From: Dehalococcoidia bacterium
GTDB lineage: Bacteria > Chloroflexota > Dehalococcoidia > Lucifugimonadales > Australimonadaceae
Length of the DNA: 64,000 nucleotides
Reading direction: 5' to 3'
Assembly (NCBI GenBank): GCA_965242755.1
Contig: OZ251500.1
Coordinates: 2,625,339-2,689,338, forward strand
The notes under the pieces are model-generated. The model was given only the letters and a program-made list of their open reading frames with translations, had not been told where the DNA came from and ran no database searches. The stretch's first letter is position 1. Each line of letters starts with the position of its first letter. The position numbers and the translations under genes are program-made. Positions 8,796-59,710 of this stretch are shown piece by piece.

Positions 8796-8818
8796 GCGCG
8801 GGGCGCCCGCCCTCGCGG

Positions 8819-13833: not shown

Positions 13834-15047
13834 GGAGACCTTTGCATAACTGAGCGTTTCGCGCGATTGGGCAGTTCCGCGCCGCTCCGATGGCCATTTC
13901 GCCCCGTCTAGCCCCCCATAGGCCGCCCTCATCCCTCCCTGCTCGCCCCGTTTTCGGGGCTCCGCAGGGCCTCTTACCCCAAACGGACGCACTACCCCCT
14001 ACGCAATCGCGGCGCCCCGCGCCTCGCACAACCCGTCCGCGCGCCGCAAGTTGTACGCCATAACCTTGAACATCGCCTCCGCAACGTTCTTCTCCAGCCC
14101 CACGTACCGCGTCCGCCAGTACCCGTAACTCCGCTTCAGCGTCCCAAACACCCCTTCGACAGGCGCCCGAACCTTCGAAACCAGCGCGTTCCGCCTCCGC
14201 TGCCAATACGGCAACTCCGCCTGGTTCTTATGCGACCGATGCATGATCCGGTCATTGATGCCGCGCGCGCGTAACCGCTTCCGACGCTCCTTCGACTCAT
14301 ACGCCTTGTCCGCGTACACCGCCTTCTCGTCCCCCATGATCAGCGCGTCAGCGACGTCCGTGTCCGCCACGTTCGCAGGCGTCAACTCCACTCCGCGAAC
14401 CAGCCCGGAGACGCCGTCCATCCCGATGTGCAGTTTGTAGCCGAAGCGCGACTTCTTCCCCTTCCGCGTCCACGCGGCGTCAGGGTCCGTCTTGCTCCCC
14501 GCGCCCGCCTCCGACCCGGGGCGACGCGCCTGCGCCTCGATCACCGACGCGTCGATCAGCGTTCCCTTCTTCACCAGCAGCCCCTTCTTCTCCAACTGGC
14601 GGCCCACCTCCTCGAACAGCCGACGCGCGAGCCCCCGCTCCGCGACCGCTTTCCGAAAGCGGCTGATCGTCGAGTGGTCGGGAACCGCGTCCTGGAGCGT
14701 GAGCCCCGCGAACCGGCGGAACGACAGCCGGTCGGTCACCGCCTCCTCTATCGCGACGTCCGAGGCGTCATACCACTGTTGGAGGATGATGATTTTCACC
14801 ATCGTGAGGGGCGGGTAGGCGGGGCGGCCTTCAGTGGATGCGTAGAGGCCGCTGACCTGCTTGGCGACTTTGGGCCAATCGATCATCTCGTCGATGCGGT
14901 CGAGTTGGTCGTTGCGTCCGATGTGGTCGGGGACGAGGACGTCGATGAAGGAGGGTTCGCTGGTCTTGCGATGCATAGCAATCTCCTGGCGTTGGGGTGT
15001 GTTGCGGCCAATTGTGCGCGATGTCGAGGAGTTATGCAAAGGTCTCC
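13834..15047 (-). mobile_element. IS5-family insertion sequence (1214 bp) with 18-bp terminal inverted repeats GGAGACCTTTGCATAACT
   Basis: IRL is at 13834-13851. IRR is at 15030-15047 (reverse complement identical). It has a single DDE transposase ORF. It is inserted in the loop of a CCCTCTCCCTCT/GGGAGAGGG palindrome, with flanking TCT / TCA. Confidence 0.85.
13999..14976 (-). CDS. IS5-family DDE transposase
   Basis: 326 aa from ATG 14976 (MHRKTSEPSFIDVL...). Has an N-terminal DUF4096/HTH-like region (RPAYPPLTMVKIIILQQWY..SD), FGYKLHIGMD, VYADKAYES and the C-terminal VEGVFGTLKRSYG motif. The 5' extension to 15240 in the track is read-through into repeats. Confidence 0.9.
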   Translation of the reverse strand: MHRKTSEPSFIDVLVPDHIGRNDQLDRIDEMIDWPKVAKQVSGLYASTEGRPAYPPLTMVKIIILQQWYDASDVAIEEAVTDRLSFRRFAGLTLQDAVPDHSTISRFRKAVAERGLARRLFEEVGRQLEKKGLLVKKGTLIDASVIEAQARRPGSEAGAGSKTDPDAAWTRKGKKSRFGYKLHIGMDGVSGLVRGVELTPANVADTDVADALIMGDEKAVYADKAYESKERRKRLRARGINDRIMHRSHKNQAELPYWQRRRNALVSKVRAPVEGVFGTLKRSYGYWRTRYVGLEKNVAEAMFKVMAYNLRRADGLCEARGAAIA

Positions 15048-15146
15048 TCAGGGAGAGGGCAGCCGCGAAGCGGCGGGTGAGGGTTGCCTGCCCGCGTAGG
15101 CGAGAATCCATGCGGCGCGCAAGCGCCAATCCCGCCCTCTCCCTCT

Positions 15147-15291
15147 GGAGACCTTTGCATAACCTATCGTCATTCCCACGTAGGCGGGAATCCAGTCGGC
15201 GCGCAAGCGCCGCTCCTCTCCTACGTAAGCGCCGCGTCATTCCCGCGAAAGCGGGAACCTACTGGGGCAGAGGAGTTATGCAAAGGTCTCC
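15147..15291. mobile_element. MITE derived from the adjacent IS5-family element (145 bp, same terminal IRs, TCT target duplication)
   Basis: GGAGACCTTTGCATAAC at 15147 and its reverse complement ending at 15291. The interior consists of REP hairpins only. It is flanked by TCT/TCT inside the same palindrome type that the full IS occupies. Confidence 0.75.
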
Positions 15292-27339: not shown

Positions 27340-27600
27340 GTGGGCGTCTCATTTTGGGTCATTGGGGCCTCCTTTTTCCGTGTTGGCCTTGTTTCGGGCG
27401 TTTCGGCGCGCGACGGTTTGAGACGCTAATGAGACGTTTTGAGACAGGAATGAGACATTTTGAGACAATTTGAGACATTGGCCTTGCGCTCCTCTCCGTT
27501 CGCGCTTGTCGCCCGCCCTTTGTTGGGGTTTGGGGGCGTGATGGATCCATCGTAGGGGCGGGGTTGGCGGTCGCGCAAGGGGCATGTGTCGCAGTTGCGG
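27340..27600 (-). promoter_or_regulatory. Conserved leader/operator element, copy 2 (inverted relative to copy 1), upstream of sulfite reductase
   Basis: On the minus strand: TTGCGC (27573-27578), 18 nt, TACGAT (27549-27554). Six GAGAC cores on the + strand at 27420, 27431, 27441, 27452, 27462 and 27472. A complementary GTCTC lies at 27346-27350, just after the ATG at 27362. Confidence 0.6.
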
Positions 27601-33356: not shown

Positions 33357-34457
33357 CTACAGCCGCTCGATGATGAGATCGGTCATATGCTCCGTGGTGG
33401 AGAACTCCGCGCCGGGAGGAGCGAGGTCCGCGGTCCGATGGCCGTCGCTCAGGGCGCGCTCGACGGCGGACTCGAGCGCGGCGGCCTCCTCGGCGAGGCC
33501 GAATGAGTATCTCAGCATAAACGCCGCGCTGAGGATGGAGCCGATGGGGTTCGCCTTGCGCTGCCCCGCGATGTCGGGCGCGCTGCCGTGGCTGGGCTCG
33601 TAGAGGCCGCGAATCTTGCGGGGCTTGCCGCGCGCGTCCGCGCCCGGCAGCCCTGCGAGGCTCGCCGACGGCAGCATGCCGAGCGACGCCGAGAGCACCG
33701 CCGCCTCGTCGGAGATGATGTCCCCGAACATATTCTCCATCACCATCACGTCGAAACTCGCCGGCCGCGTGATCAGCAGCATCGCGCAGGAGTCCACCAA
33801 CTGATGCTCCAACTCGACATCGGGATAGTCGGCGGCGACCTCGTTGGCGACCTCGCGCCAGAGGCGGGACGATTGCAGCACATTGGCCTTGTCGACGGAG
33901 GTGAGTTTGCGCCGGCGCCCGCGCGCGAGTTCGAATCCGACGCGCAGTATCCGCTCGATCTCCTTCTCGGAGTAGAGGAGCGTGTCCACGCCTTTGCGCC
34001 CCGCCTTCGTCGCCCAGCGCTTCTTGGGCGGCGCGTAGTAGAGGCCGCCGGTGAGTTCGCGGAGAATCACCATATCCGCGCCGCGGACGCGCTCGTCCTT
34101 GAGCGGGCTCGCGCCCTCCATGCCGGGGAAGACCTTGACCGGGCGGATGTTGGCGTAGAGGCCGAGCGCCTTGCGGAGCCCGAGTATCGCCGCCTCCGGG
34201 CGGACGGGCGCGTCGTCCCACTTGGGCCCGCCCACCGCGCCGAACAGCACGGCGTTCGCCTGCCGGGCGGCGCGGACGGTCTCGTCGCGCAGGGGCGTCC
34301 CGTAGGCGTCTATCGCGCCGCCGCCAACGACGTCCGTCCGGTAGCGGAACGTATGCCTCCAGCGCGCCGCGACCGCATCGAGCGCGCGTTTCGCGGCCTC
34401 CGTAACCTCGGGCCCGACGCCGTCGCCGGGGAGAACCATGATGTCGAATGTGGGCAT
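33357..34457 (-). CDS. leuB: 3-isopropylmalate dehydrogenase
   Basis: MPTFDIMVLPGDGVGPEV..., RELTGGLYY, NMFGDIISDEAA, SHGSAPDIAG. Confidence 0.95.
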   Translation of the reverse strand: MPTFDIMVLPGDGVGPEVTEAAKRALDAVAARWRHTFRYRTDVVGGGAIDAYGTPLRDETVRAARQANAVLFGAVGGPKWDDAPVRPEAAILGLRKALGLYANIRPVKVFPGMEGASPLKDERVRGADMVILRELTGGLYYAPPKKRWATKAGRKGVDTLLYSEKEIERILRVGFELARGRRRKLTSVDKANVLQSSRLWREVANEVAADYPDVELEHQLVDSCAMLLITRPASFDVMVMENMFGDIISDEAAVLSASLGMLPSASLAGLPGADARGKPRKIRGLYEPSHGSAPDIAGQRKANPIGSILSAAFMLRYSFGLAEEAAALESAVERALSDGHRTADLAPPGAEFSTTEHMTDLIIERL

Positions 34458-34524
34458 TTTGCGTTACCTCGCTCTTGCGAAAGAGCCGCCTCATCGTAAG
34501 GGGCCGGGGCGCGACGGCGCAAGG
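34352..34524. repeat. Direct repeat DR1: native leuB 5' end (first ~35 codons) plus ~65 bp upstream
   Basis: Near-identical to 37499-37665 and 39221-39385 (same orientation). Confidence 0.9.
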
Positions 34525-34534
34525 GCTCATCAGC

Positions 34535-35425
34535 CTAGGTGGGAGAGGGCATCTTTGCCGTCAGGTCCTTAAGGACGGCCTCTGTCTCATCGATGACCTC
34601 TTTTATCAACGCGAAGGCGCCTATACGTCTGTCGTAGTGTTGTATTCCGAATTTCCCATTCCGTTTTCCTTTGATTGCCTCCAACCCATCCGATGGGGAA
34701 TCAGGGCGGGCTGGGTACCGGGTATAAGCCTCATGCGGAAACGTAACGGCACTGAGCACGAACAGCCCTACGAAAGCATCCACTCGTTTGAAGTACCAAC
34801 CCACTTGCCTTCTTGTGATTGAAGCAGTCACGAGCCGTCCGGTGGCACCCGATGAATTATTCCGATGGATGCTGATAATCAACTTAGCGAATTCATAGGT
34901 GCTTTTGTGTTGGAAATTAGGGAGTTTTCTGGTAACCTCATGAGCGAGCATTTCCGCAGAACCGGTAGACGTATCCGCGAATGTGAATTTCTGAGAGCGA
35001 GGGAAACGCTTGATTTCCGCGGCGCGTTTGCCATTCCGCGTTTCGCGGACGGAGAGAAGAGGGCGGACGGCTTCAGGGGGCATGACCGCTAGTCGCGCCC
35101 ATTGCTCCGGGTCGTTGACAAATCTATCTAGCGTATCGTATGAACTTTCACTAATAAGCTGATTAATGGCTGGAGTTATATCGGCTTTCTCTCTCACCTT
35201 TGCGGCAAACCTAAGGAACACCTTCAGCGGCCTGTGGCGGATTCCGAAAACGTCGTCAAACGAGTCCCCCCACTCGAGGAGCAGCGCCTTGCACGCCTTC
35301 TCGACCGACTGCTGGATTGTGTACAGCGCGAAGACGGGGTCACTCGCGGCAAACGCACGCGCAGCCTTCGCGTCGGCCAACGAGCGTTGGAACCACAATC
35401 CCACGTATTCCGGCATGTTGACCAT
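34535..35425 (-). CDS. HEPN-superfamily protein (large, ~296 aa)
   Basis: From MVNMPEYV: WFQRSLADAKAARAF...ALYTIQQSVEKACKALLLEWG...RHRPLKVFL matches the HEPN N-terminal helices, and the C-terminal ...PHEAYTRYP matches the HEPN RYP region. GC is markedly lower (~50%) than the surroundings. The 5' extension in the track is probably non-coding. Confidence 0.5.
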   Translation of the reverse strand: MVNMPEYVGLWFQRSLADAKAARAFAASDPVFALYTIQQSVEKACKALLLEWGDSFDDVFGIRHRPLKVFLRFAAKVREKADITPAINQLISESSYDTLDRFVNDPEQWARLAVMPPEAVRPLLSVRETRNGKRAAEIKRFPRSQKFTFADTSTGSAEMLAHEVTRKLPNFQHKSTYEFAKLIISIHRNNSSGATGRLVTASITRRQVGWYFKRVDAFVGLFVLSAVTFPHEAYTRYPARPDSPSDGLEAIKGKRNGKFGIQHYDRRIGAFALIKEVIDETEAVLKDLTAKMPSPT

Positions 35426-35881
35426 GCTATCAGAACGGCAACCAGCGGAGCGTCGAATCCACCGCTGCGAGGGCCGGGCTAGGGAAGCGCGACTGGCGGA
35501 GCGTTGCGGAGACGGCTCGTATCCGAATGGCTGGCCTCCTTTCGTTTCGGTCGGGTCCCGCCGGGATGAGGGCGCACCCCGCCCCATCCCCATCTGGTCA
35601 TTATCCACCGTAATCCCGCGCCTGCAGGAGCGCAACCCCTGCGGAACCGAATTTTGGGCCAATTTCCGGCGGTTCCGCGCGCGCCGCCACCGAACGCTAC
35701 GAACGAACACGAACGAACGCTACGAATTCTCGCACTTTCCCGCCTACGCGGGAATGACGATGCGCCTCTGCGTCAGGGGGGGCGGAGCGCCCTGCACCCG
35801 TCTTGTGACGCTATCGCGCCGGTGGTTCTTGCGTGGTGGTCTCTGCGTAGGCGGGCATGGGCGCGGCGCGGATTCCATCCA

Positions 35882-37321
35882 CTACCCGCCCCCGGAGATA
35901 GAGAAGTGCGTGCGGCGCGCTTTCGTCTCCTCCCGCAGTTGCTCAAGGGGAATGATGCGCGAGTTCTTGACGCTGTTGCAGTTGCCGCACAGGAGTTGCA
36001 GGTTGGCGTCGATGTCGGGGCCGTCCGCCGACGTGGGATGGACGTGGTCTATGGTGAGCGCGTGGATCGGCATGGGCCATTCGCAGCCGTTGCACTTGCC
36101 GCCCTGCGCGGCGTGGAGCACGGCCCTGATGTTCGCGGAGCGGCGAGCGCCGACGGGCGCCGGCGGCAAATCGGTGCGCTTCGGCGCATCCATGCGCCGC
36201 GTCACGTCGCCGACGAACCCGGAGAACGGGCGTCGCGCGCCATGCAGGTCGCCGGAGGCGATTTGCACTTCCTTGGCGAGGCGCTCGACGACGAGGTCGT
36301 AAGCCTTTTCGGAGAGGTCTACCCCTATCCATTCTCGCCCCAACTTCTCCGCCGCGACGCAGGTGGTGGCGCAGCCGCAGAAGGGATCAAGCACGAGGCC
36401 GCCCTCGTTGGACGACGCCCTAATAATGCGCTCCAGCAGCGCGATCGGCTTCTGCGTCGGGTAGCCGGTGCGCTCTTTTCCGCTCGCTATGCTGATGTCG
36501 GTCATAATGTCGGGGAGAGGCTTGCCCTTGGCCTCGTCCAAGTACACTTTGCGACGGGGAGTCGAGCCGCGGGACGGCCAGTAGATTCGCCCGTCGGCAT
36601 CCAATTCCTCCAAGCGGCGCATCGGGAACTTCCAGACATCCTTGATGCCCCGCCAGGTGTACTCGTAGCCGCCGCCGGTAAGCGTGCGAGCGTGAAGAGG
36701 AGAGGTGGTGAAACTGCCCCTCTCATCCTGATAGCGGTAGTTTTTTCGCACCACATCCTCTCCCAGCGGCTGGTATTGCGTGTTCCAAACCGCGTTGTGA
36801 GGGGCGTAGAAGAGCAACCTATCGCCGACGCGCCCATACTTGCGCGCGTCGTTGTGGGAGCCGTAGCGCTGCCAAACAATTTCATTCCTGAACTGCGATG
36901 CTCCGAACACGGAGTCCATGACGGCTTTCAGGTAATGGACAGCCGTGTCGTCGCAGTGGAGGTAGATGCTGCCCGCGGGTTTCAGGACGCGACGCATTTC
37001 TATGAAACGCACCGCCATATAGGTGAGGTAGCCCTGCATCGCCGGGCCGGAAGCGAAACCGGACGCCCTGATCGCGTAATGGAGCGCCGGGTTGCGCTCC
37101 TCGATCTCGTCAACCCACTCCTCTTTGACATCGTCGAGCGTCCAGGCGTCTTTGAAAGCCGCCCCAGCGGAGATGGACCCGACGGGAGCGCTCCACTGCT
37201 TGCCGGAGTTAAAGGGCGGGTCGAGGTAGACGAGGTCGACGGTCGAGCTGTTCATGCCGCGCAAGACGTCGAGGTTGTCGGCGATGAAGAGGGTGCGGTT
37301 GGCTATCGTATTCTCGGCCAT
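35882..37321 (-). CDS. Beta-class N6A/N4C DNA methyltransferase fused to a C-terminal HNH endonuclease domain
   Basis: Motif IV comes first (VYLDPPFNSG), then TGYPTQKP and motif I VLDPFCGCATT (PF01555-like order). The C-terminus CNGC...IDHVHP....NLQLLCGNCNSVK is an HNH motif. Confidence 0.85.
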   Translation of the reverse strand: MAENTIANRTLFIADNLDVLRGMNSSTVDLVYLDPPFNSGKQWSAPVGSISAGAAFKDAWTLDDVKEEWVDEIEERNPALHYAIRASGFASGPAMQGYLTYMAVRFIEMRRVLKPAGSIYLHCDDTAVHYLKAVMDSVFGASQFRNEIVWQRYGSHNDARKYGRVGDRLLFYAPHNAVWNTQYQPLGEDVVRKNYRYQDERGSFTTSPLHARTLTGGGYEYTWRGIKDVWKFPMRRLEELDADGRIYWPSRGSTPRRKVYLDEAKGKPLPDIMTDISIASGKERTGYPTQKPIALLERIIRASSNEGGLVLDPFCGCATTCVAAEKLGREWIGVDLSEKAYDLVVERLAKEVQIASGDLHGARRPFSGFVGDVTRRMDAPKRTDLPPAPVGARRSANIRAVLHAAQGGKCNGCEWPMPIHALTIDHVHPTSADGPDIDANLQLLCGNCNSVKNSRIIPLEQLREETKARRTHFSISGGG

Positions 37322-37498
37322 GTGGATCTTCTCCGTCAGGTTGCGCGGGCATTGTGCGCCGCCGGGCGGCGCCGCGCAAGGGGCGCGTGTCCGATTGGGG
37401 GATGGATTCGCGTAGGCGAGAGGGCGGGGCCGGCACGCCTACACGGGCAGCTGCGTCGTGTTTGGGGTACCCCTACTCCCGGGCGCGCACGAAATTAC

Positions 37499-37665
37499 GC
37501 CTCCATCGCGCCGCGACCGCATCGAGCGCGCGTTGCGCGGCCTCCGTAACCTCGGGCCCGACGCCGTCGCCGGGCAGAACCATGATGTCGAATGTGGGCA
37601 TTTTGCGTTGCCTCGCTCTTACGAAAGCCGCCTCATCGTAAGGGGCGGGGAGCGACGGCGCAAGG
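37499..37665. repeat. Direct repeat DR2: leuB' 5' fragment copy
   Basis: Encodes MPTFDIMVLPGDGVGPEVTEAAQRALDAVAAR then diverges. Preceded by the shared junction GGGCGCGCACGAAATTAC (37481-37498). Confidence 0.9.
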
Positions 37666-37872
37666 GGCGTATGGCGGCGTTGTCATTCCGCGTAGGCGGC
37701 ACCTAGCCCACCGGGGGCGCTCCATCCTTCGTAATCGTCGCCCGCCTACTGACCGTCATTCCCGCGTAGGCGGGAATCCAGGAACCCGCGTAGGCCGCTG
37801 CGGGCGCTCGACCTTCCAGCGCCTCATCATCGCCCGCGTAGTCAGGCTCCTCTTCCGCGAAGAGGAGCGGCG

Positions 37873-39132
37873 CTATCGCGCCGACTGGATGTCCCGCCTA
37901 CGCGGGCAGGACGGTAGATTACGCAAAGGTCTCGTTGAGGAATGCCCGGAGTATGGCCGGCTGCGGGAGTTCGGCGAGCGGCCTCCGTATGCGCGGTCGT
38001 GGTCGCGCGCCTCTTTGACGATGAGGAGTTCGTGGGAGGCTTTGACGTGGTGGTTCGTTCCGTTCTCGATGCGGTTCTTGCCGATGCGCGTTTCGCCTTG
38101 CCCAAGCGTGTATTGCCATTCGACCTCGATGATCTTGCAGTCGGCGTACCACTCGCGGATCGGTTCGCAGTCGTTGTAGGAGAGGACGAATCCCCCCTCG
38201 TGGCGGCGCAGGAGGTCGCGCAGGAGGTCGTGGCGGAAGTTCGCGTGGTGGATGGGGAAGTTGCGCTGCGGGTAGATGCCGCGGAACATTTTGCTGTCGC
38301 CGTCGAGGTAGTAGGGCGGGTCGCAGTAGAGGAAGTCGCCGGAGTGGGCGGGGATCGTGTCCTCGAATCCGCCCTGCGTCACGGAGAGGGTTGGGCAGGA
38401 GAAGCGCTCCACTTTGGCGACGAGCCGCTCGTAGCGGACTTCGTCCTCGTAGATTTTGGACATCCAGCCGAGGAAGCCTGGCCCGTAGGCGAGGTTGTGG
38501 TTGAACCAGTAGTGGGCGGCGAGTTCGAGGGGGTCGGCGATGGGGCGCGTTCGCGTCCAATGCTCCTTGAGGCGCTGCTTGATCTGCCGGTAGCGCTGCT
38601 GGGTCGGCTCCCATTGCCTGATGCGGTCGGCGAGCGCTTTGGGGGCGCTCAACTGGACTTCCCAGTAGTTGGTCAGGACGTCGAAGACGTCGTAGCCCTG
38701 CACGGGGACGCCGAGTTCTCTGGCGCAGGCGATTTCGACGGAGCCGCCGCCGATGAAGGGGGAGACGACGCGGGAGAGGCGGCTAGGGAGGTTTTCGACG
38801 ACGTGGCCGACGGCGAGGCTTTTGCCTCCGGCGTAGCGGAGGGGGAGGCCGTTGTATCTGCCGTATTTGTAGCGTCCGGCGCTGCGGAGGGAGGCGAGGA
38901 AGGCGTCGCGTGTGCCGCGTCCGTCGAGGGCGGCTTGTCCGCGCAAGGGCTTGTAGGCGGCGCGGGGCTCGGCGAGCGCCAGAGCGTCCCGCACTGCCGG
39001 TGACAGGCGAGACGGCCATTCGCCAGCGTATGCGGGCTCGACGTGGTCGACGACGTCCTCGACGACTTGGTCCTCGTCGCGCAAGGCATCGTTCTCTCGC
39101 AAGCGCACCTTCAAGCGTTCAATATCCACCAT
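37873..39132 (-). CDS. Dam-like (D12 class) N6-adenine DNA methyltransferase, apparently orphan
   Basis: LRYAGGKSLAV...VVSPFIGGGSVE (motif I region) and FLYCDPPYYLDG (DPPY). ATG at 39132. The 3' end reads into a REP/IS-IR repeat, so the exact C-terminus is uncertain. Confidence 0.8.
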   Translation of the reverse strand: MVDIERLKVRLRENDALRDEDQVVEDVVDHVEPAYAGEWPSRLSPAVRDALALAEPRAAYKPLRGQAALDGRGTRDAFLASLRSAGRYKYGRYNGLPLRYAGGKSLAVGHVVENLPSRLSRVVSPFIGGGSVEIACARELGVPVQGYDVFDVLTNYWEVQLSAPKALADRIRQWEPTQQRYRQIKQRLKEHWTRTRPIADPLELAAHYWFNHNLAYGPGFLGWMSKIYEDEVRYERLVAKVERFSCPTLSVTQGGFEDTIPAHSGDFLYCDPPYYLDGDSKMFRGIYPQRNFPIHHANFRHDLLRDLLRRHEGGFVLSYNDCEPIREWYADCKIIEVEWQYTLGQGETRIGKNRIENGTNHHVKASHELLIVKEARDHDRAYGGRSPNSRSRPYSGHSSTRPLRNLPSCPRRRDIQSAR

Positions 39133-39220
39133 GCGCCGTACCTTATATCCAACGCCCGGCCAACGCAACCATGCGCCCAGCCCCGTGCGCGCCTACCCCC
39201 ACGGGCGCGCACGAAATTAC

Positions 39221-39385
39221 GCCTCCAGCGCGCCGCGACCGCATCGAGCGCGCGTTGCGCGGCCTCCGTAACCTCGGCCCCGACGCCGTCGCCGGGCAGA
39301 ACCATGATGTCGAATGTGGGCAATTGCGTTGCCTCGCTCTTGCGAAAGCCGCCTCATCGTAAGGGGCGGGGCGCGACGGCGCAAG
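39221..39385. repeat. Direct repeat DR3: leuB' 5' fragment copy
   Basis: Encodes MPTFDIMVLPGDGVGAEVTEAAQRALDAVAAR. Preceded by the same junction GGGCGCGCACGAAATTAC (39203-39220). Confidence 0.9.
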
Positions 39386-39539
39386 CGGCGGGTGGCGGCG
39401 GTTGGCACCGGTAGGTTCCCGCTTTCGCGGGAATGACGTGGCGGCGGGATGGCTTGGGGACGGGGCGCGGGGCACCCCGTCGTGGCGCTGTCGCGCCGAC
39501 TGGATTCCCGCCTGCGCGGGAATGACGGAGGTTATGCAA

Positions 39540-39945
39540 AGGTCTCGTTGAGGAATGCCCGGAGTATGGTCGGCTGCGGGAGTTCGGCGAGCGGCCTCCG
39601 CAGGCGCGGTCGTGACCGCGCGACTCTTTGGCGATGAGGAGTTCGTGGGAGGCTTTGACGTGGTGGTTGGTTCCGTTCTCGATGCGGTTTTTGCCGATGC
39701 GGGTTTCGCCTTGCCCAAGCGTGTACTGCCATTCGACCTCGATGATCTTGCAGTCGGCGTACCACTCGCGGATCGGTTCGCAGTCGTTGTAGGAGAGGAC
39801 GAATCCCCCCTCGTGGCGGCGCAGGAGGTCGCGCAGGAGGTCGTGGCGGAAGTTGGCGTGGTGGATGGGAAAGTTGCGCTGCGGGTAGATGCCGCGGAAC
39901 ATTTTGCTGTCGCCGTCGAGGTAGTAGGGCGGGTCGCAGTACCAG
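39540..39945 (-). pseudogene. 5'-truncated copy of the Dam-like methyltransferase (C-terminal ~135 aa only)
   Basis: YCDPPYYLDGDSKMFRGIYPQRNFPIHHANFRHDLLRDLLRRHEGGFVLSYNDCEPIREWYADCKIIEVEWQY... is near-identical to 37930-38335. Homology stops abruptly at ~39945. Confidence 0.85.
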
Positions 39946-40622
39946 TAGCACTTGCCAGGTGGGGTTGTAGGCGCTGTCGAGGATCGCTTTCTTGTAGTCG
40001 CCGTCGGGGGCGACGGCGATGGGGATGACGATGTAGCCGAACTTCTTGCCGTCGGCTTTCCGCATCGCGCGGCCGACGGCTTGGACGACGTCGACGACGG
40101 AGCGTCGGGGGAGAGGAAAAGGGCTCCGTCGAGGTCGGGCACGTCGACGCCTTCGGTGAGGCATCGCGCGTTGGAGAGGATGCGGCATTCGCCCTCCGCG
40201 TCGGCATTGATCCACTACAACTTCTCGGCGCGGCGCATCGAGTTCATCGTTCCGTCGACGTGGTCCGACGTGTAGACAAGGGCGTCGTGGATGCCGTTGC
40301 GCTCCTAGTCGTCGGGGGCGTAGAACTTGCACTGGATCGCGGCGAGGCCGGCGCCGCTCCTGAGTTCGGCGACGATGTCGACGCCCGTGTCGGGGCGGCC
40401 GGGGTTGCCCGGCCACTCGCTCCAGAGCCAGACGTTGGAGAATGTCCGCGAGTAGAGCGCGTCCTGCTGGAAGTACCGCTTGACGAGCCGCTCGAAAGCG
40501 GCGCCCTTGGCGGGCTCGCTCGTCGCGTCCTCGCGGATTTCCGCGAGGACATCCCCGAACGTCCGTCGCCGCGGAGGGGCGGCGCACGTATTGTCGGCTT
40601 GCGTCATCATATCGCCGGGCAT
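39946..40622 (-). pseudogene. Remnants of a COG4889/type ISP-like helicase-nuclease (N-terminal Mrr-type nuclease fragment + helicase motif VI fragment)
   Basis: The ORF 40305-40622 N-terminus (FERLVKRYFQQDALYSRTFSNVWLWSEWPG...TGVDIVAEL...AIQCKFY) ends in a stop. A different frame holds VDVVQAVGRAMRKADGKKFGYIVIPIAV...YNPTWQVL (helicase motif VI region). Intact homologues are several kb, but only ~0.68 kb remains. Confidence 0.6.
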
Positions 40623-40813
40623 TGTACGCGATGGGGCGCGCGGGGGCGCAAGGGGCGGGTGTCCGATTTCGGGGGGAGGGGGGCGTGGGCGGGAAGGGGA
40701 ATCTACTGGACGCGGGAGGCAACCAACGCCCCGCGCCGCCTGCGTTTGCCGAATGGCGCGGGAGCGGGTATACTCTCCGTCGCGCCTTCTCGCGTAAGCG
40801 TGCGAATCCGACG

Positions 40814-42172
40814 ATGACAGACTACGACATCGCAGTGATCGGCTCAGGCCCCGGCGGCTACTCCGCCGCCGTTCGCGCCGCCCAACTCGGGCTGCGCGCC
40901 GTTTGCGTCGAGCGCGAAACGCTCGGCGGCGTCTGCCTCAACCTCGGCTGCATTCCCTCCAAAGCCCTCCTGCGGAACGCGGAGGCGCTGCGCGCCGTCA
41001 AAGGCGCCGGCGAGTACGGAGTCCGCGTGACCGGCGTCGAGGCCGACTACCCGGCCGGCGTCGCCCGAAGCCGCGGCGTCGTGGAGCGCTTGCGGAAGGG
41101 CGTCGCCCACCTCTTCCGCCAGCACGGCGTCGCGTATATCGAAGGCGACGCCTACATCGCGGGCGCGAACGAGATCGCCGTGAACGGCGAGCGGATCGGC
41201 TGCGCCTCCCTCATCATCGCAACCGGCGCGCGCCCCGCCGTCCCCGCTCCCTTCAAGGCCGACGGCGAAGTCGTCGAGACCTACCGCGAGGCGGTCCTCG
41301 ACGAGCGCGTCCCCGACCGCGCGGTCATCATCGGCGCGGGGCCGACCGGCGTCGAGTTCGCGTACCTCTACAACGCCTACGGCGCGGACGTGACGCTCGT
41401 CGAGAGCCTTCCGCGCATCCTGCCTAAAGAGGACGCGGAGGTCACGCAGTCGCTCGCCCGCGCGTTGGAGCGGCAGGGCGTTCGCATTCTGACGAGCGCG
41501 ACGGTGGCGGGCATCGACGTTCGGGACGGCGAGGCGAGCGCGGCGATAATTACGTCCGACGGCGAAGTGCGCTTGGACGCCGACCGCGTCCTCATCGCGG
41601 CGGGGATCGTCCCCAACACGGACGGGCTCGGCGCGGAGAACGCGGGAGCGGCGCTCGACCGCGGGTTCGTCCGCGTGGACGAGCGGCTCTGCGCCAACGG
41701 CGAGAGCGTCTACGCGGTGGGGGACGTGAACGGACGGCTTCCGCTCGCGCACGTCGCGCAGGCCGAGGGCGTCCACGCCGCGGAGCGCATCGCAGGGCTT
41801 TCGCCGCAGCCGCTCGACTACCTTGCGATGCCCCGCGCCGCCTACTGCGACCCGCAGACGGCGAGCATCGGCCTCACGGAGGCGGAGGCGCGGACCCGCG
41901 GCGCGGTCAGAGTCGGCAAGTTTCCCTTTATCGCCAACGGCAAAGCGCTCGCCGCGGGCCATAAGGACGGATTCGCTAAAATTGTCGCCGACGCAGAAAC
42001 GGGCGAACTGCTCGGCGCGCACATCGTCGGCCACGAAGCGACCGAGTTGCTGGGCGAAATCAGCATGGCCCGGCTGCTCGACGGAACGGACGTCGAAATC
42101 GGGCGGATGGTCAACGTCCATCCGAGCATGTCCGAAGCGGTGAAGGAAGCCGCGCTCGCCGCGCTGCGCTAG
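40814..42172 (+). CDS. lpdA: Dihydrolipoyl dehydrogenase
   Basis: DIAVIGSGPGGY, redox disulfide GGVCLNLGCIPSK, and the C-terminal dimerisation motif HPSMSEAV. ATG at 40814. Confidence 0.9.
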   Translation: MTDYDIAVIGSGPGGYSAAVRAAQLGLRAVCVERETLGGVCLNLGCIPSKALLRNAEALRAVKGAGEYGVRVTGVEADYPAGVARSRGVVERLRKGVAHLFRQHGVAYIEGDAYIAGANEIAVNGERIGCASLIIATGARPAVPAPFKADGEVVETYREAVLDERVPDRAVIIGAGPTGVEFAYLYNAYGADVTLVESLPRILPKEDAEVTQSLARALERQGVRILTSATVAGIDVRDGEASAAIITSDGEVRLDADRVLIAAGIVPNTDGLGAENAGAALDRGFVRVDERLCANGESVYAVGDVNGRLPLAHVAQAEGVHAAERIAGLSPQPLDYLAMPRAAYCDPQTASIGLTEAEARTRGAVRVGKFPFIANGKALAAGHKDGFAKIVADAETGELLGAHIVGHEATELLGEISMARLLDGTDVEIGRMVNVHPSMSEAVKEAALAALR

Positions 42173-42206
42173 GCGGCGGCGCGCCATCACGGGTTGGAGG
42201 GAACGA

Positions 42207-43988
42207 ATGACCAACGGCAACTTTGACTTCGCGCTTGCGATAGGGGGTTCGGCGGGGCAGGGCATCGCCACCCCGGGCGACACGCTCGCCCGCATCGTCG
42301 CAAGGCGCGGACTCCACCTGTCCACCTACAACGCCTATCAGTCCATCATTCGGGGCGGCCACATTTTCCTCACCGTCCGCATCGCGGAGCAGGAAGTTCG
42401 CAGCCACGGCGACAAACTGGATATGCTGCTCGCCCTCAACCAGGACACGATGGACCGGCACCTGCGCCTCCTCGGCTCCGGCGCGGCGGCGCTCTACAAC
42501 AGCGACGACGTCTCCCCGGGCGACGCCGTCGACGGCGTGCAACTCTGCCCCCTCCCCGTCAAGGAGATCACGGGCCTCCAGCGCGCCGGCCTCAACCAGA
42601 ACACCGTCGCGCTCGGCGCGATGATGCACCTGCTCGGCCTGGACTTCTCCCTCTTGGAGACGAGCATCGCGCAGCAGTTCGCCCGCAAAGGCGAGGACGT
42701 CGTCAACGAAAACGTCCGCGTCGCCCTCGCGGGCTACACCCACGCGCAGGAGAACTTCGTCCCCTATCCCGACCCGATGCCGGAGGGCGGCGAGCCGCTC
42801 GCGGTTTGGTCGGGCAACGAGGCGCTTGCGATGGGCGGCGCCGCGGCCGGCGTGAAATTCTACGCCGCCTACCCGATGAGCCCCTCCACCGGCGTCCTCC
42901 ACTGGTACGCGCAGAACGCCCGCAGCCTCGGCATTATGGTGCGCCAGGTCGAGGACGAGATCGGCGTCGCCAATATGGTCGTCGGCGCGGCCCACGCCGG
43001 CGCCCGCGCGATGTGCGCCACCTCCGGCGGCGGCTTCGCCCTCATGACGGAGGCCATCGGCGCCGCCTCGATGATGGAGATCCCCTGCGTCTTCATCAAC
43101 GTCCAGCGCGCCGGCCCCTCCACCGGCGTGCCGACCAAGACCGAGCAGGGCGACCTCTGGCAGGCGCTCGGCGCGAGCCAGGGCGACTTCGAACGCTTCG
43201 TCGTCAGCCCCACCGACGCGCTCGACGCCTACAACACCGTCCCGGAACTCTTCAACCTCGCCGACAAACTCCAGTGCCCAGGCGTCATCCTCTCCGACCT
43301 CCTCATCTCCGAAGGGCGGTACAGTTTCCACCCGCGCGACGTCGACTTCCATCCCGTCATCGACCGCGGCGCGCTCGTGAGCGAAGAGTCCGCCAACGGC
43401 GAGGAGTACCTGCGCTACAAGGACACGCCTAGCGGCGTTTCCCCCCGCGCGCTCCCGGGCACGCCCGGGCACGTGCACACCGTCGCGACGGACGAGCACG
43501 ACGAAGACTCGGTGCTCCTCTCCGACGAGTTCACTAATCCGCACCGCCGGCGCGCCTCCGTCGAGAAGCGCGCCCGCAAGTTCCAAGACGCCGCGCGGCT
43601 CGTCGCCCCCCCGGAGATCGAAGGCCCCGCCGATGCCGAGGCGACGCTCGTGGGCTGGGGCTCCACGGCGGGCGTCATCGCCGAGGCCATCGAGCAACTC
43701 GCGGCGCGCGGCGTAACCGTCAACCGCCTCGCCGTCAAATGGCTCATCCCCCTGCACGCGGAGGAGATCGAGGCCGCGCTGAACGGGCGGAAGGTCATCA
43801 TCGTCGAGAACAACTACTCCGGCCAGTTCGCCCGCTACCTGCGGAGCGAGACCGGCCTCAGCGCCTACGGCCACGTCCGCAAGTACGACGGCGAGCCGTT
43901 CGCGCCCCACCACATCGCCGACGGCGTCGCCGACCTGCTCACGGGCGAGGGCGGCGTCTACGTCCCCTACCAGGAAGTCATCGTCTAG
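42207..43988 (+). CDS. korA: 2-oxoacid:ferredoxin oxidoreductase, alpha subunit
   Basis: 593 aa with fused gamma/alpha-type domains (GGSAGQGI..., AYPMSPST, EDEIGVANM). Followed directly by the beta subunit. Confidence 0.85.
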   Translation: MTNGNFDFALAIGGSAGQGIATPGDTLARIVARRGLHLSTYNAYQSIIRGGHIFLTVRIAEQEVRSHGDKLDMLLALNQDTMDRHLRLLGSGAAALYNSDDVSPGDAVDGVQLCPLPVKEITGLQRAGLNQNTVALGAMMHLLGLDFSLLETSIAQQFARKGEDVVNENVRVALAGYTHAQENFVPYPDPMPEGGEPLAVWSGNEALAMGGAAAGVKFYAAYPMSPSTGVLHWYAQNARSLGIMVRQVEDEIGVANMVVGAAHAGARAMCATSGGGFALMTEAIGAASMMEIPCVFINVQRAGPSTGVPTKTEQGDLWQALGASQGDFERFVVSPTDALDAYNTVPELFNLADKLQCPGVILSDLLISEGRYSFHPRDVDFHPVIDRGALVSEESANGEEYLRYKDTPSGVSPRALPGTPGHVHTVATDEHDEDSVLLSDEFTNPHRRRASVEKRARKFQDAARLVAPPEIEGPADAEATLVGWGSTAGVIAEAIEQLAARGVTVNRLAVKWLIPLHAEEIEAALNGRKVIIVENNYSGQFARYLRSETGLSAYGHVRKYDGEPFAPHHIADGVADLLTGEGGVYVPYQEVIV

Positions 43989-44004
43989 CCGGAAGGAGCG
44001 CCTA

Positions 44005-44910
44005 ATGACCACCGCCACGACCATCGAACTCACCGCCAAGGACTTCAAGGGCAAGGTCGACCCCGACTGGTGCGCCGGCTGCGGCGACTTCGGCGTGCTC
44101 AACGCCCTGCAGCGCGCCGCGTCCGAACTCGGGCTGCAGCCCCACGAGATCGTCACCGTCAGCGGCATCGGCTGCTCCTCCAACCTGCCCGGCTACATCA
44201 ACACCTACGGCGCGCACACGCTGCACGGGCGCTCCCTCGCGTTCGCCACGGGCGTCAAGATGGCCAACCACGACCTCACCGTCATCGCCGCCGGCGGCGA
44301 CGGCGACGGCTACGGCATCGGCGGCAACCACTTCACCCACACCGCCCGCCGCAACGTCGACCTCACCTACGTCGTGATGAACAACCAGATCTACGGCCTC
44401 ACCACTGGCCAGGTCTCCCCCACCTCCAGAATCGGCCAGAAAACCAAGAGCACCCCGTTCGGCAGCGTCGAGTACCCCATCAACCCCATCACCTCCGCCA
44501 TTATGAACGGCGCCACCTACGTCGCCCGCGCGTACTCCGGCGAGGTCAAGCACCTGACCGAACTCATCAAGGGCGGCATCCGGCACAAAGGCTTCGCCCT
44601 CATCGACGTCTTCAGCCCCTGCGTAACCTTCAACCTCGACAACTCCCACAACTTCTTCAAAGCCCGCATCCGCAAGTTGGAGGACGAAGGCCACGACCCC
44701 GAAGACTGGGCCGCCGCCTGCGACAAGGCGATGGAGTGGGGCGACGAGATCTACATCGGCAAGTTCTTCCACCTCGAGAACGACAAGGATTCCAACGACA
44801 AGGAATCCCTCACCGACCTCGAGCCCGTCCTACGCGACGGACCCATCGCCAAGCGGCAGGGCGGCCTCACCGAAGAGCAGGCCGACCGCATCCTGCAGCG
44901 GATGATGTAG
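44005..44910 (+). CDS. korB: 2-oxoacid:ferredoxin oxidoreductase, beta subunit (TPP-binding)
   Basis: WCAGCGDFGVL, GIGCSS, GDGDGYGIGGNH, MNNQIYGLTTGQ. Confidence 0.9.
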   Translation: MTTATTIELTAKDFKGKVDPDWCAGCGDFGVLNALQRAASELGLQPHEIVTVSGIGCSSNLPGYINTYGAHTLHGRSLAFATGVKMANHDLTVIAAGGDGDGYGIGGNHFTHTARRNVDLTYVVMNNQIYGLTTGQVSPTSRIGQKTKSTPFGSVEYPINPITSAIMNGATYVARAYSGEVKHLTELIKGGIRHKGFALIDVFSPCVTFNLDNSHNFFKARIRKLEDEGHDPEDWAAACDKAMEWGDEIYIGKFFHLENDKDSNDKESLTDLEPVLRDGPIAKRQGGLTEEQADRILQRMM

Positions 44911-44968
44911 CGCCTCCGCGCGGGAGCGCCCCCAAAGCCCCAAAGGGCGCTCCCGCGCGAACTCCGCG

Positions 44969-45982
44969 ATGCCCGTCACGCAGCAGCAGCAAGCCGAAAT
45001 AGACGCGCTCCGCGCCGAGCGCGCCGACACCCGCAGATCGACCGTCCCCGCCCTCGAGGACGTCCTCTATCAGCCCTTCCCCGTCCTCGACCACGGCTTC
45101 GTCCGCGTCGTGGACTATATGGGCGACGACGCGGCCATCGTGCAGGCCGCCCGCGTCTCCTACGGACGCGGAACCAAACGCTCCCGCGACGACCAGGGCC
45201 TCATCAACTACCTGATGCGGAACGCGCACACCTCTCCCTTCGAGATGTGCGAGATCAAACTCCACGTCAAACTCCCGATCTTCGTCGCCCGCCAGTGGAT
45301 CCGCCACCGCACCGCCAGCGTCAACGAATACTCCGCCCGCTACTCCATCCTCGACCGCGAATTCTACGTCCCCCCGGAGGAGCAACTGACGATCCAGTCG
45401 AGCGCGAACGCGCAAGGGCGCGGAGGCTCCGGCGTCGGCGAGCAAATCGGGTTCGGTTTCGAGAATCGCTCCGGCAGACGCTCCGCCGCGAAAGTCCCTA
45501 AGCAGGAGGAACCGCGCCAAAAGGAGAGAGAAGACGAAGCGCGCCGCGCCGCCGCCAAACTCGTCCAGGAAGCCCTAACGGCGGACGCCGACCGCTCCTT
45601 CGACCTCTACGACAGCCTGCATGCTGACGGTCTCGCCCGCGAGACAGCCCGCATCGGCCTCCCCCTCAGCGCCTACACCCAGTGGTACTGGAAGACCGAC
45701 CTCCACAACCTCTTCCACTTCCTCGCCCTCCGCATCGACGAGCACGCCCAATGGGAGATTCGAGAGTACGCGGGCGCCATCCTCCGCCTCGTTGACCTCT
45801 GGGTTCCGCTCGCCGCCAAAGCCTTCCGCAGTTACCGGCTAGGCGGCCTCCGCCTCAGCGAAGAGGGTCTAGAGGCCGTAAGGCGCCTCGTTCGCAACGA
45901 GCGGATAGACCCCGCCGCGCTCGAAATGTCCCCTCGCGAATGGCGCGAACTCCGCGCCGCCCTCCGCCTCGGCGACGAGTAG
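44969..45982 (+). CDS. thyX: FAD-dependent thymidylate synthase ThyX (with a low-complexity insertion)
   Basis: ThyX motif RHRTASVNEYSARY. 337 aa, longer than the typical 220-250 aa, because of a Gly/Arg/Glu-rich insert (~45400-45560). Confidence 0.9.
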   Translation: MPVTQQQQAEIDALRAERADTRRSTVPALEDVLYQPFPVLDHGFVRVVDYMGDDAAIVQAARVSYGRGTKRSRDDQGLINYLMRNAHTSPFEMCEIKLHVKLPIFVARQWIRHRTASVNEYSARYSILDREFYVPPEEQLTIQSSANAQGRGGSGVGEQIGFGFENRSGRRSAAKVPKQEEPRQKEREDEARRAAAKLVQEALTADADRSFDLYDSLHADGLARETARIGLPLSAYTQWYWKTDLHNLFHFLALRIDEHAQWEIREYAGAILRLVDLWVPLAAKAFRSYRLGGLRLSEEGLEAVRRLVRNERIDPAALEMSPREWRELRAALRLGDE

Positions 45983-46059: not shown

Positions 46060-46353
46060 CTCGAATGCTGACGTCGAAGTTCGGGCGCCTGTTGAGGGCG
46101 TGTTGGGGACGCTGAAGCGGAGTTACGAGTACTGGCGGACGCGGCGGGCGGACGGGTTGTGCGAGGCGCGCGCAGGGGCGATTGCGTAGGGGATGGACTG
46201 TCCGTTTGGGCGTAGGAGGCCTGCGGAGCCCTGAAAACGGGGCGAGCAGGGAGGGATGAGGGCGGCCTATGGGGGTTAGATGGGGCGAATTGGCCATCGG
46301 AGCGGCGCGGAACTGCCCCAATCGGCCAAACGCCTAGTTACGCAAATGTCTCC
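46060..46353 (+). mobile_element. Remnant of the IS5-family element (transposase 3' end with internal deletion + 150-bp end + terminal IR)
   Basis: Encodes ...VRAPVEGVLGTLKRSYEYWRTR/RADGLCEARAGAIA*, against VRAPVEGVFGTLKRSYGYWRTRYVGLEK...RRADGLCEARGAAIA* in the intact copy. 46195-46353 is the reverse complement of 13834-13998, ending in GGAGACATTTGCGTAAC. Confidence 0.85.
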
Positions 46354-46403
46354 ATCGGGAGAGGCGCGTTCTCGGCGCTGCGCGTCGCCAATCCAAACCG
46401 GCG

Positions 46404-58165: not shown

Positions 58166-59710
58166 CTAACCTCCGGCAAGCGAGGACTGATACGACTGCG
58201 CGACGCGCCGGTCGTACTCCGCTTGCGCCACCGCCGACGCTCGCGCCAAGTTGACGAGCGGGCCGTAGTTCCTCCCCAGCGTCGTGTTGCGGTCGCGCAA
58301 CTCCTGCAGCGTCATCTTGTGCTGCTTCTCCCGGTTGCACGGCTCGCACAATATCGAGCGGTTCGGCAGTTCGTTGGAGCCGCTCGACCAGCGCGACTCG
58401 CGGTGGTCAAGGTGAAAGTAGCGCTCGTCGTTCTGCGGCGGATTGAATCCGCAGCCCCAGCAGTTGTAGCCGAGCGCGTCCAGCAGGAACCGCTTCATGA
58501 TCGGTTCGGGGATTTTCGACGCGGGAACCTTGTAGCGGCGCTCCGGCAGCGGCTTGATGTCCTGAGCGGGAACGGGGTCTTCGTCCGTCCGCTCCGGCAA
58601 ATCGTTGGGCGAGCGCAAGACGACGTCGGCGGCGGCGATGAGCGCGGGGCTTTCGCCTTGCCCTTCGCCGTTCACCGAGTAGCGGAACTTGCCGAACTGG
58701 CGGCGCAGCACGGTGAGCGCGCGCGGGCTGATGTCGCAGGCGATCCACTGCCGCCCGTTGCGCTCGGCGGCGACGGGGACGTAAGCGCAGCCCGCGAAGC
58801 AATCCAGCACGACGTCGCCGGGGTTCGCGCTCGCCTTGACGATGCGCTCCGCGAGGGCGACGGGCTTCTGCGTGGGGTAGCCGGTGCGCTCCTTCGCCTG
58901 CGAATTGAGGTAGGAGATTTCCCACACGTCGCGCATCGCCTTCTCGCGCGTCGTGTCGTCGGTGTAGGTCTACTCGATCTTGCCGGCGGGCGTGAACGTC
59001 GTGCGCCGACGCCCTTTGTGCTGGGATTTCTCGCTGTAGGGCTCGGTGAGCCGGTTGAAATTCGTTTGGGCGGAGTCCTTGGCGTAGAAGTAGATGGTGT
59101 CGTGCATCCTCTGGAAGTGCTTCGTCGCCCCCGTCCACCGCTGGTATGACCAAACCAATTCGTTCCGCAGGTTCGGCGAACCGAATATGGAATCCAGCAT
59201 TATGCGGACATAGGAGTTGACCGCGTAGTCGCAGTGGAAATAGAGGCTGCCCGACGGCTTCAAGATGCGGTGAATCTCGATGAGCCGAATGGACATATAG
59301 GCGAGGTACGCCGCGTGCGCCTCGTCGTGGGCCGACCGGGTCGCCTCTATCGTCTTGGAGAGGGCCGGCCAATCCGAGTTCATCTTGGCGATCCAGTCCT
59401 CGTGGACGTCCTTGTCCCACCGCCAAATGTCGCTGTAGCGGGAGTCCGCCCCGTCGGGCCAAACGACGCCCGCCGCCTCCGCGTCCACGGCGTTGCGGAG
59501 CCCCCAGCCCGCCAGCATCGCGCGCTCGTTGTCCAACTCCGCCTTCGTCAGGGGAGGCTTCAGCGCGCCCTTCCACGTCTCGTTCTTGGCGAACGGCGGG
59601 TCGATGCACACGAGGTCGATGCTCTCGTTGTCGAGCCGGCGCAGCAGCGACAGGTTGTCCGCGATGAAGAGGTTTCTGTTCAGCGGGTGGGGCGCCGCCA
59701 TTGCGCTCAT
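58166..59710 (-). pseudogene. Second beta-class DNA methyltransferase::HNH fusion, interrupted by a single in-frame TAG (58970-58972)
   Basis: ORF 58970-59710 (IDPPFAKNE..., LKPSGSLYFHCD) and ORF 58166-58936 (TGYPTQKP, VLDCFAGCAY, HNH CWGC...LDH...ILCEPCNREK) are in the same frame. They are colinear with the intact homologue at 35882-37321. Confidence 0.75.

Follow-up and report, generated by a model that had tools for sequence, protein, structure and literature searches.

The start of leuB, the gene for 3-isopropylmalate dehydrogenase, occurs three times in a 64,000-nucleotide stretch of DNA (the window) from an uncultured Dehalococcoidia bacterium (contig OZ251500.1 of assembly GCA_965242755.1, positions 2,625,339 to 2,689,338). 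One copy belongs to the intact gene and the other two are truncated stubs, lying upstream of it in an island of 6 kb that carries DNA methyltransferase and restriction genes. Comparison with related strains identifies the DNA upstream of leuB as a hotspot for defence genes. The hotspot is probably, though by no means certainly, driven by recombination, with the repeated leuB start serving as the homology anchor and no dedicated recombinase needed. The rearrangement is of a known kind at a defence hotspot and does not represent a novel type of mobile element.

Three direct copies of a repeat of ~175 nt were found by BLAST, and there is no fourth in the 64 kb window. The repeat consists of a leader of ~68 nt before the ATG and leuB codons 1 to 37-40. 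Copy A is part of the intact gene; copies B and C, 94% identical to A (BLAST E ~1e-72), are parts of stubs B and C. These divide the island into unit 1, between copy A and stub B, unit 2, between the two stubs, and unit 3, beyond stub C. The copies lie where an initial annotation, made from the sequence of the window, had placed a triplicated leuB 5' end. Stub B has a leuB' open reading frame (ORF) of 42 codons (37473-37601) with a TAG stop, and in stub C the ATG start codon is mutated to TTG. Beyond the leader the stubs also share ~14 nt and palindromes that resemble repetitive extragenic palindromic (REP) sequences. An 18-mer, GGGCGCGCACGAAATTAC, which had been described as an identical junction at both distal stubs, has exactly two matches in the window (37481-37498 and 39203-39220; chance expectation 0.01) and directly adjoins stubs B and C, not copy A. 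It is present at both places as described, but the ~10 nt on its stub side are still diverged leuB sequence; the stub residues read W-R-R-N-F against W-K-H-N-F in relatives L001 and L002.

The related loci, designated by L numbers, include 14 leuB loci from contigs of LeuB proteins that cluster at 92% identity or more with the LeuB of the window, a cluster in which one sequence (P0124) is identical to it. Exact look-ups of this LeuB and of an island-encoded methyltransferase (MTase) fused to an HNH nuclease domain (MTase::HNH) gave no match. Scans of genome and metagenome contigs found only relatives with 88% LeuB identity or less, none with a stub, and the closest public genomes are Chloroflexota/Dehalococcoidia metagenome-assembled genomes.

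In L001 and L002 (87-88% LeuB identity) leuC, leuD and leuB lie side by side; the spacer measures 49 nt and there is no stub, so that these loci represent the empty site. The order in L162-L165 (four long-read contigs, 89% nucleotide identity in leuB) is leuC-leuD-cassette-leuB, again without a stub, and the cassettes are of three kinds: DUF2442; RHH with PemK; and RHH with DUF4160 and DUF2442::MTase. A single copy of the leuB start is present in all of these as well as in L174 and L175. The locus L170 reads leuC-leuD-REP-leader-stub-J-GmrSD (640 aa)-leuB, J being the junction sequence that follows the stub. Here the stub, called as a 42-aa gene, is in the native operon position and the cargo is 2.1 kb. 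L161 has a stub-GmrSD-leuB module like that of L170 with another left flank, and L173 reads REP-leader-stub-J-helicase-leuB, the helicase (760 aa) having DEAD, Helicase_C and MZB domains. L166 is collinear with the window on both sides (window 39128-45445 equals L166 8188-1873 at 97.8% identity, and window 28003-34463 matches at 96.7%); it has stub C only, then J, then a GmrSD-like gene of 553 aa, and units 1 and 2 are absent. L168 and L169 have an allele of MTase::HNH, then PDC-M02A/B or nothing, then REP-leader-leuB. Other defence cargo was found in L171, L167 and L174 (HEC-01, helicase remnants and PDC-M41A). Among the strains, the position upstream of leuB is thus occupied by GmrSD/HEC-05, HEC-01, PDC-M02A/B, PDC-M41A, an SngC/BrxH-like helicase, MTases or toxin-antitoxin pairs. 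The initial annotation had proposed a leuB-proximal hotspot with different cargo. The comparison of relatives, which it had named as a check, bore this out, with empty sites, single-stub alleles and varied defence genes.

The DNA around the hotspot differs between strains as well. On the left of the stub lies leuD, SBP_bac_3, an ABC transporter or lpdA. Synteny of the window with L161 breaks just after TauE downstream of leuB (window 32865), and the segment next to leuB in L161 (12148-18914) equals window 5209-11996, which is 21 kb off and in the opposite relative orientation. Just downstream of leuB there is a second variable slot, bounded by two TauE paralogues. Its content is GmrSD in L162 and L165, DUF3800 in L168 and L171, and a pair of unknown genes in L169; in L163 and L164 nothing occupies it. 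In L030, from a distant Dehalococcoidia (60% LeuB identity), a 41%-identical MTase::HNH (8307-9671) is immediately upstream of leuB and divergent to it, with no stub there.

The stubs trace back to a single event. An alignment of 16 copies of the leuB start included five stubs, which came from four strains; that of L173 came to light only afterwards. All five aligned stubs end at the same nucleotide and continue into homologous junction sequence, and they share substitutions against the intact copies (GAGGC versus GAGGT at -10, TTCTG versus TTCTC at +27). A stub with this truncation point is present in five strains: the window, L161, L166, L170 and L173. The common truncation nucleotide, the homologous junction and the shared substitutions together indicate that the leuB/J breakpoint was made once and then inherited. 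Its identity in stubs B and C is therefore no evidence for repeated site-specific events.

The shared junction extends for different lengths beyond the breakpoint: ~16 nt between stubs B and C, ~45 nt between C and L161 or L170, ~82 nt between C and L166, and into the helicase gene between C and L173. The junction of stub B is closer to that of L170 than to that of stub C. At the leuB side the cargo ends at -2, -6, -14, -41 or -68. Judged from these alignments, a fixed crossover core is absent, cargo boundaries varying on both sides. The initial annotation had read the repeats as attL/attR-like products of site-specific insertion and had suggested aligning them to define the crossover core; that alignment, the single inherited breakpoint, the varying cargo ends, the nesting of cargo described below and the lack of a recombinase among the window ORFs tested and in the related loci speak against this reading. 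Its idea that each insertion re-supplied the gene start stands in so far as displaced starts remain as stubs, but the junction was not remade each time.

Read in the direction of leuB transcription, the island begins at lpdA and continues with Type IIG remnants, an MTase 3' end, two REP-like palindromes, the leader and stub C, J, a Dam-like MTase ORF, two REP-like palindromes, the leader and stub B, a short junction, MTase::HNH, one REP-like palindrome, a gene for a ~296-aa helical protein, and the leader with the intact leuB (Table 1). All island genes have the same direction, the lpdA flank is divergent, and leuCD is not present in the window. The lpdA flank is likewise found in L166. The units are 1.7 and 3.1 kb in size, and Pfam detects MTase, HNH and a weak HEPN in them, and GmrSD in the L170 insert, but no mobility genes. 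Unit 1 has nothing in common with units 2 and 3 but the repeat. The tRNA and Rfam scans over the island were empty, which excludes an RNA gene in the island as the insertion target.

Table 1. Features of the leuB island and its right-hand flank (positions in the window; leuB is transcribed from the minus strand)
Feature	Position	Strand	Content or evidence
Intact leuB, 3-isopropylmalate dehydrogenase, 366 aa	33357..34457	-	Pfam Iso_dh E=7.5e-129
Repeat copy A, on intact leuB	34352-34525 (as a listed feature 34347..34525)	-	leader -68 to -1 and ~37 codons
Unit 1 cargo gene 2, rare ~296-aa helical protein	34535..35425	-	weak HEPN-like N-terminus
REP-like palindrome between the two unit 1 genes	35737..35764	.	
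Unit 1 cargo gene 1, N6/N4 DNA methyltransferase with C-terminal HNH nuclease	35882..37321	-	479 aa
Stub B	37470..37666	-	promoter-like leader, leuB' ORF, shared junction of ~28 nt
Repeat copy B	37496-37666	-	BLAST against copy A
Two REP-like palindromes, stub B leader to MTase 3' end	37754-37781, 37891-37918	.	
Unit 2 cargo, in-frame chimeric ORF	37873..39132	-	helicase N-terminus and Dam-like D12 MTase
Junction J after stub C	39128-39212	-	
Stub C	39213-39389	-	orthologue of the single stub of L166
Repeat copy C	39218-39389	-	BLAST against copy A
Two REP-like palindromes, unit 3	39416-39443, 39505-39532	.	
Unit 3, Dam-like MTase 3' end, C-terminal ~108 aa	39484..39941	-	PADLOC PDLC03281 positions 203-309
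Unit 3, two Type IIG restriction-methylase remnants	39922..40622	-	PADLOC PDLC03597 2.6e-24, 1.3e-15
lpdA, dihydrolipoyl dehydrogenase, right-hand island flank	40814..42172	+	Pfam Pyr_redox_2 1.7e-65, Pyr_redox_dim

The cargo proteins tested all match PADLOC defence families, except the rare helical protein. MTase::HNH matches Pfam N6_N4_Mtase (1.9e-43) and HNH (6.9e-10) and PADLOC MTase_II (3.4e-66), has its own promoter-like site at ~37345-37374, and has alleles of 86-94% nucleotide identity in L168 and L169. The gene for the helical protein, whose mechanical ORF reaches 35710, lies in low-GC DNA (51-56%). It is not in L168 or L169, where PDC-M02A/B or nothing takes its position. Its family has eight homologues among 5.8 billion clusters (P0299 and P0305 among them), typically of ~297 aa, and gave no NCBIfam, PADLOC or plasmid match. 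The protein had been labelled HEPN. Its HEPN Pfam score is 20.4 bits, under the cut-off of 22, and the AlphaFold2 model (predicted local distance difference test score 67) has no fold match in the PDB, so that structure prediction did not confirm the label.

The unit 2 ORF matches Pfam MethyltransfD12 (1.8e-27) and PADLOC MTase_II PDLC03281 (8.7e-116). Units 2 and 3 share 460 nt of the MTase 3' end at 95.4% identity (37869-38328 versus 39484-39941), and the unit 3 copy is also present in L166. What had been called a helicase in unit 3 proved to be two pieces of one Type IIG restriction-methylase profile of PADLOC: 40305-40622 is an Mrr_cat N-terminus (PDLC03597 positions 4-87) and 39922-40101 covers positions 581-637. 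Pfam Mrr_cat_2 was found on the L166 orthologue of the remnant.

The leuB leader has promoter-like features. In copy A there is a -35-like TTGCGC at 34517-34522 and a -10-like TACGAT at ~34494-34499, and CCCTTGCGC-N17-TACGAT stands where conservation of the repeat begins (-68). The motif CCCTTGCGC-N17/18-TAC(G/A)AT occurs on the minus strand at 34517, 37374, 37658, 39379, 40646 and 27573, upstream of leuB (three times), MTase::HNH (as CACAAT), the Type IIG remnant and another gene. From its recurrence upstream of several genes, it is probably the local promoter consensus, and promoter activity is probably retained by each stub. If so, each cargo unit as well as leuB would be served by a leuB promoter copy of its own.

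The window contains 17 matches to the REP-like palindrome TTCCCGC-N4-GCGGGAA (for example at 15240, 27239, 35737, 37759, 39416, 39505 and 54081), where 1.1 would be expected, and TGAC often comes directly after it. Five of the 17 are inside the 6-kb island. In L161, L168-L170 and L173-L175 the palindrome borders directly on the leuB leader, and its copies are clustered where synteny breaks.

Cargo in the island is nested in the remains of older cargo. Window 38979-39398 matches L173 5661-5254, and window 37989-38979 matches an MTase of L172 (~94-95%), which has another context there. With both matches within one ORF, the unit 2 ORF is an in-frame chimera of 51 helicase (DEAD/MZB) codons (39132-38980) and an MTase core (38979-37989) that begins at ~MTase codon 10; homologous MTases are ~310-380 aa long. 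The initial annotation of this ORF as a Dam-type MTase is right as to the MTase domain but missed the helicase beginning. The parts join at GACGCTCTGG/GTCGCGCTCG, a 7/10 microhomology reconstructed, for this one join only, from L173 and L172. In L171 a 156-aa ORF is an internal deletion of the L173-type helicase, in L167 a 270-aa partial gene shares the 3' end of that helicase, and in L166 the GmrSD-like gene replaced the helicase downstream of J with the leuB-proximal spacer retained. These patterns and the chimera show that cargo was replaced inside older cargo.

The MTase 3' end of unit 2 differs by ~5% from the copies in unit 3, L166 and L172. Elsewhere the window locus is ~95-96% identical to L161, L170 and L173 and ~97-98% to L166. 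The divergence of unit 2 is thus at the level of alleles of different strains, which argues that it is an imported allele and not a recent in-place copy. Units 2 and 3, which had been counted as separate inserted elements, look in this comparison like two diverged alleles, now placed in tandem, that have the arrangement MTase-REPs-promoter-leuB start in common. The leuB body is 96.7% identical to L166 over the whole gene, first 150 nt included; in these 150 nt there are three differences from L166 and ten from L168/L169. The leader of copy A, however, is of the type of L168/L169 and the stubs and is absent before the intact leuB of L166. The combination of an L166-like leuB body with a non-L166 leader places the unit 1 crossover at or near the ATG, inside the repeat. 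A recombination breakpoint within leuB was sought by a sliding count of single-nucleotide polymorphisms (SNPs) and none was found, the gene being L166-like throughout.

The following sequence of events probably accounts for the array. The ancestor had the order leuC-leuD-REP-promoter-leuB. One insertion with long target duplication, as the comparison of loci shows, brought in a defence gene together with a fresh leuB start after about codon 40, leaving the old promoter and ~40 codons as a stub fused to J. This state is preserved in L170. The stub-J sequence and the intact leuB then acted as homology arms flanking a cargo slot in which, as the related loci also show, cargo was replaced, deleted or nested in older cargo, at least one illegitimate join occurring at microhomology. 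In a later step, DNA of diverged alleles with promoter-leuB' modules may have recombined out of register to give the three-copy array. The incoming DNA could have been a circle that was integrated in the Campbell manner, through one crossover within the ~190-nt repeat. Alternatively it could have been linear and have entered by homology-facilitated illegitimate recombination, one of its ends pairing by homology and the other joining illegitimately. Older units would have been shoved away from leuB, with the last crossover at or near the leuB ATG.

Several points weigh against this scheme. The donor allele that it predicts, either a full MTase-REP-promoter-leuB or a stub-J28-MTase::HNH, was not recovered. 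The L168 contig, which begins 148 nt upstream of MTase::HNH, was considered as a carrier of a stub at that place and rejected, its first ~70 nt not aligning with stub B. The coding parts of stubs B and C are 97.3% identical, and C and its L166 orthologue 93.7%, which needs, and suggests, gene conversion or an origin of part of B within the genome. The repeats are short, and arguments from SNPs rest on few sites. The proposed leuB promoter was not called by a sigma-70 scan, its score of 8/12 being under the threshold. The recombinase search in this genome, finally, was limited to 64 kb of a genome of ~3.16 Mb, a limit that leaves room for the trans-acting enzyme considered next.

The units might be non-autonomous integrative elements, mobilised by a tyrosine or serine recombinase acting in trans, with the leuB 5' region as attB and tandem accretion as the outcome. 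Each unit would then be a small cis-mobilisable element with an attP that includes the leuB start, comparable to the arrays of cis-mobilisable elements (CIME) and integrative and conjugative elements (ICE) at fda and tRNA genes. Direct repeats that restore the target gene end, stubs that end at one fixed nucleotide before a shared junction, and a last crossover inside the repeat would all be expected of such elements. Nevertheless this origin is quite unlikely. As the initial annotation had stated, no integrase lies between leuB and lpdA; the Pfam search of ORFs found none in the island or elsewhere in the ~40 window ORFs, where the sole mobility gene is an insertion sequence (IS) transposase (13999-15240), and for the 14 related loci the Pfam listings name neither an integrase nor a recombinase family within 10 kb of leuB. 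The arms are not conserved, J being common to units 1 and 2 for ~16 nt only, the leuB-side ends vary, the units are small and without mobility genes, and cargo is nested in older remnants with a microhomology join. Viral contigs with the leuB start or leader were sought and none was found, so a phage-borne attP was rejected. An integron cassette array was rejected as well, with no integrase, no attC sites and no Rfam or other structured repeat family in the island, its boundaries being leuB fragments and REP-like palindromes. The promoter-leuB'-junction module could still be a dedicated capture site for defence cassettes, a kind of integron that is integrase-free or served in trans, although this is very unlikely. 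If it were true, incoming cassettes would bring or receive a copy of a housekeeping promoter, older ones would shift outward and repeats would release circles, and the locus would be a defined cassette-capture system for defence in Chloroflexota, not a recombination accident.

An in-place tandem segmental duplication by unequal sister-chromatid exchange, in which the block MTase-REP-promoter-leuB' would have been doubled or tripled, with later decay or replacement of cargo, fits the common order of stub, REP-like palindromes and 460-nt MTase 3' end in units 2 and 3 and the close similarity of the stub coding parts. It is nevertheless unlikely, since units 2 and 3 differ by as much as alleles of different strains, stub C and unit 3 are present in L166 (97.8% in the flank) without units 1 and 2, the junction of stub B is nearer to that of L170, unit 1 shares only the repeat with the others, and unit 2, as its helicase::MTase fusion shows, arose on an allele that carried a helicase. 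It is highly improbable that the cargo nuclease drove insertion, HNH or restriction breaks near leuB being repaired by copying cargo in, as in an attack by a restriction-modification (RM) system or in homing. The HNH domain of the unit 1 protein and the MTase::HNH next to leuB in L030 would agree with such a process, and Furuta et al. (PMC2853133) suggested double-strand breakage, common to all RM types, as the basis of insertion with long target duplication. Most cargo at this site in other strains, however, is without such a nuclease (toxin-antitoxin pairs, helicase, HEC-01, PDC-M02/M41), L030 has no stub and its gene is in the opposite orientation, and no recognisable homing site was found. 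An assembly artefact by mis-expansion of a repeat, which the initial annotation had raised as a caveat, is a general risk with repeats only and can be practically dismissed: the copies are ~6% different with unique flanks, the source contig is 3.16 Mb long, and a stub together with an intact copy is present in four independent assemblies.

The recombination-driven account has its closest precedent in insertion with long target duplication (Nobusato et al. 2000; Furuta, Abe & Kobayashi 2010, PMC2853133), which was described for RM systems of types I-IV without transposase or integrase. There the direct repeats are tens to ~420 bp long and single copy in strains without the insert, gene fusions arise at the junctions, and the repeats can later support amplification (PMC2853133). 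That study took repeats of more than 30 bp that are single copy where the insert is lacking, and inserts below 20 kb without integrase, transposase or prophage. The leuB repeat is ~175 nt, with the order stub-cargo-leuB in L170, and the inserts are of the sizes given above. As to the presence of both restriction and modification genes in the insert, which that study also asked for, unit 2 has an MTase only and unit 1 has MTase::HNH, with a predicted nuclease. Type IV systems were included in the second screen of PMC2853133, and relatives carry Type IV GmrSD-like genes. The leuB locus differs in that the duplicated target is the promoter and 5' coding end of a housekeeping gene, that there are three copies with different cargo in each unit, that the MTases are solitary or fused and not parts of complete restriction-modification pairs, and that the stub junction is inherited across strains and not made anew.

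The stacking of units resembles the arrays of type VI secretion system (T6SS) effector-immunity modules in Vibrio cholerae, for which Kirchberger et al. 2017 (PMC5361080) proposed homology-facilitated illegitimate recombination, citing a like proposal for Rhs C-terminal tips. In that process an anchor recombines homologously while the other end joins illegitimately, older modules are pushed along and leave orphaned fragments, and the complex arrays then spread by ordinary homologous recombination without an integrase (PMC5361080). At the leuB locus the 5' end of leuB is the common anchor, the two stubs are the orphans, and the one reconstructed microhomology join lies at the non-anchored end. 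What is displaced in Rhs and T6SS arrays, however, is the variable 3' end of a toxin gene, with immunity genes kept; in the leuB island it is the 5' end of a biosynthetic gene, and the cargo that remains serves anti-phage defence.

Other arrays and hotspots offer further comparisons. ICE and CIME arrays and islands at the ends of tRNA or protein genes consist of tandem units split by gene-end repeats, with the gene end restored. Tandem accretion of such elements requires a site-specific recombinase, a fixed core and conserved arms. A recombinase was looked for in the window ORFs and the 14 related loci, and a fixed core with conserved arms in the alignments, and neither was found. In Pseudomonas and E. 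coli, defence hotspots between core genes have variable cargo and no mobility genes, and homologous recombination in the flanks is the presumed route of exchange. The leuB locus is similar in that, from strain to strain, one position between conserved genes is taken by different defence systems. It differs in that a duplicated gene fragment within the hotspot forms one of the flanks, which makes out-of-register recombination and the stacking of units possible.

The locus is a natural example of defence-island growth without mobility genes, with empty sites, one-stub intermediates and nested alleles in one population. One illegitimate event would duplicate the gene start, and plain homologous recombination would then swap, stack and remove defence cargo. 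Insertion with long target duplication is thereby extended to an uncultured Chloroflexota lineage and linked to displacement arrays. Short leuB-like ORFs and chimeric helicase::MTase ORFs in these genomes are to be annotated as recombination scars.

Other features were noted elsewhere in the window. Two inverted copies of a 156-nt sequence (12164-12319 and 27346-27490, 86.5% identical) each have about seven GTCTCA hexamers at a spacing of 10-11 nt, followed by a ribosome-binding site and a short ORF that starts MT(R/Q)NET. They bracket ~15 kb with an IS, RCC1 and leucine-rich repeat proteins, Nmad3 and a ThsB-like TIR protein. By their pattern these arrays look like iterons or operators, and they could mark where an element or an invertible segment ends. 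The IS (13999-15240) has a DDE_Tnp_1 and DUF772 transposase, and an inverted partial copy of its end (46074-46364, 88-92% identical) adjoins POR/Thy1 genes. A second N6_N4 DNA methyltransferase, at 58166-59710 on the minus strand, consists of two adjacent ORFs that cover profile positions 1-132 and 141-217 and is probably a frameshifted pseudogene; 110 nt of it are 78% identical to the MTase::HNH gene.

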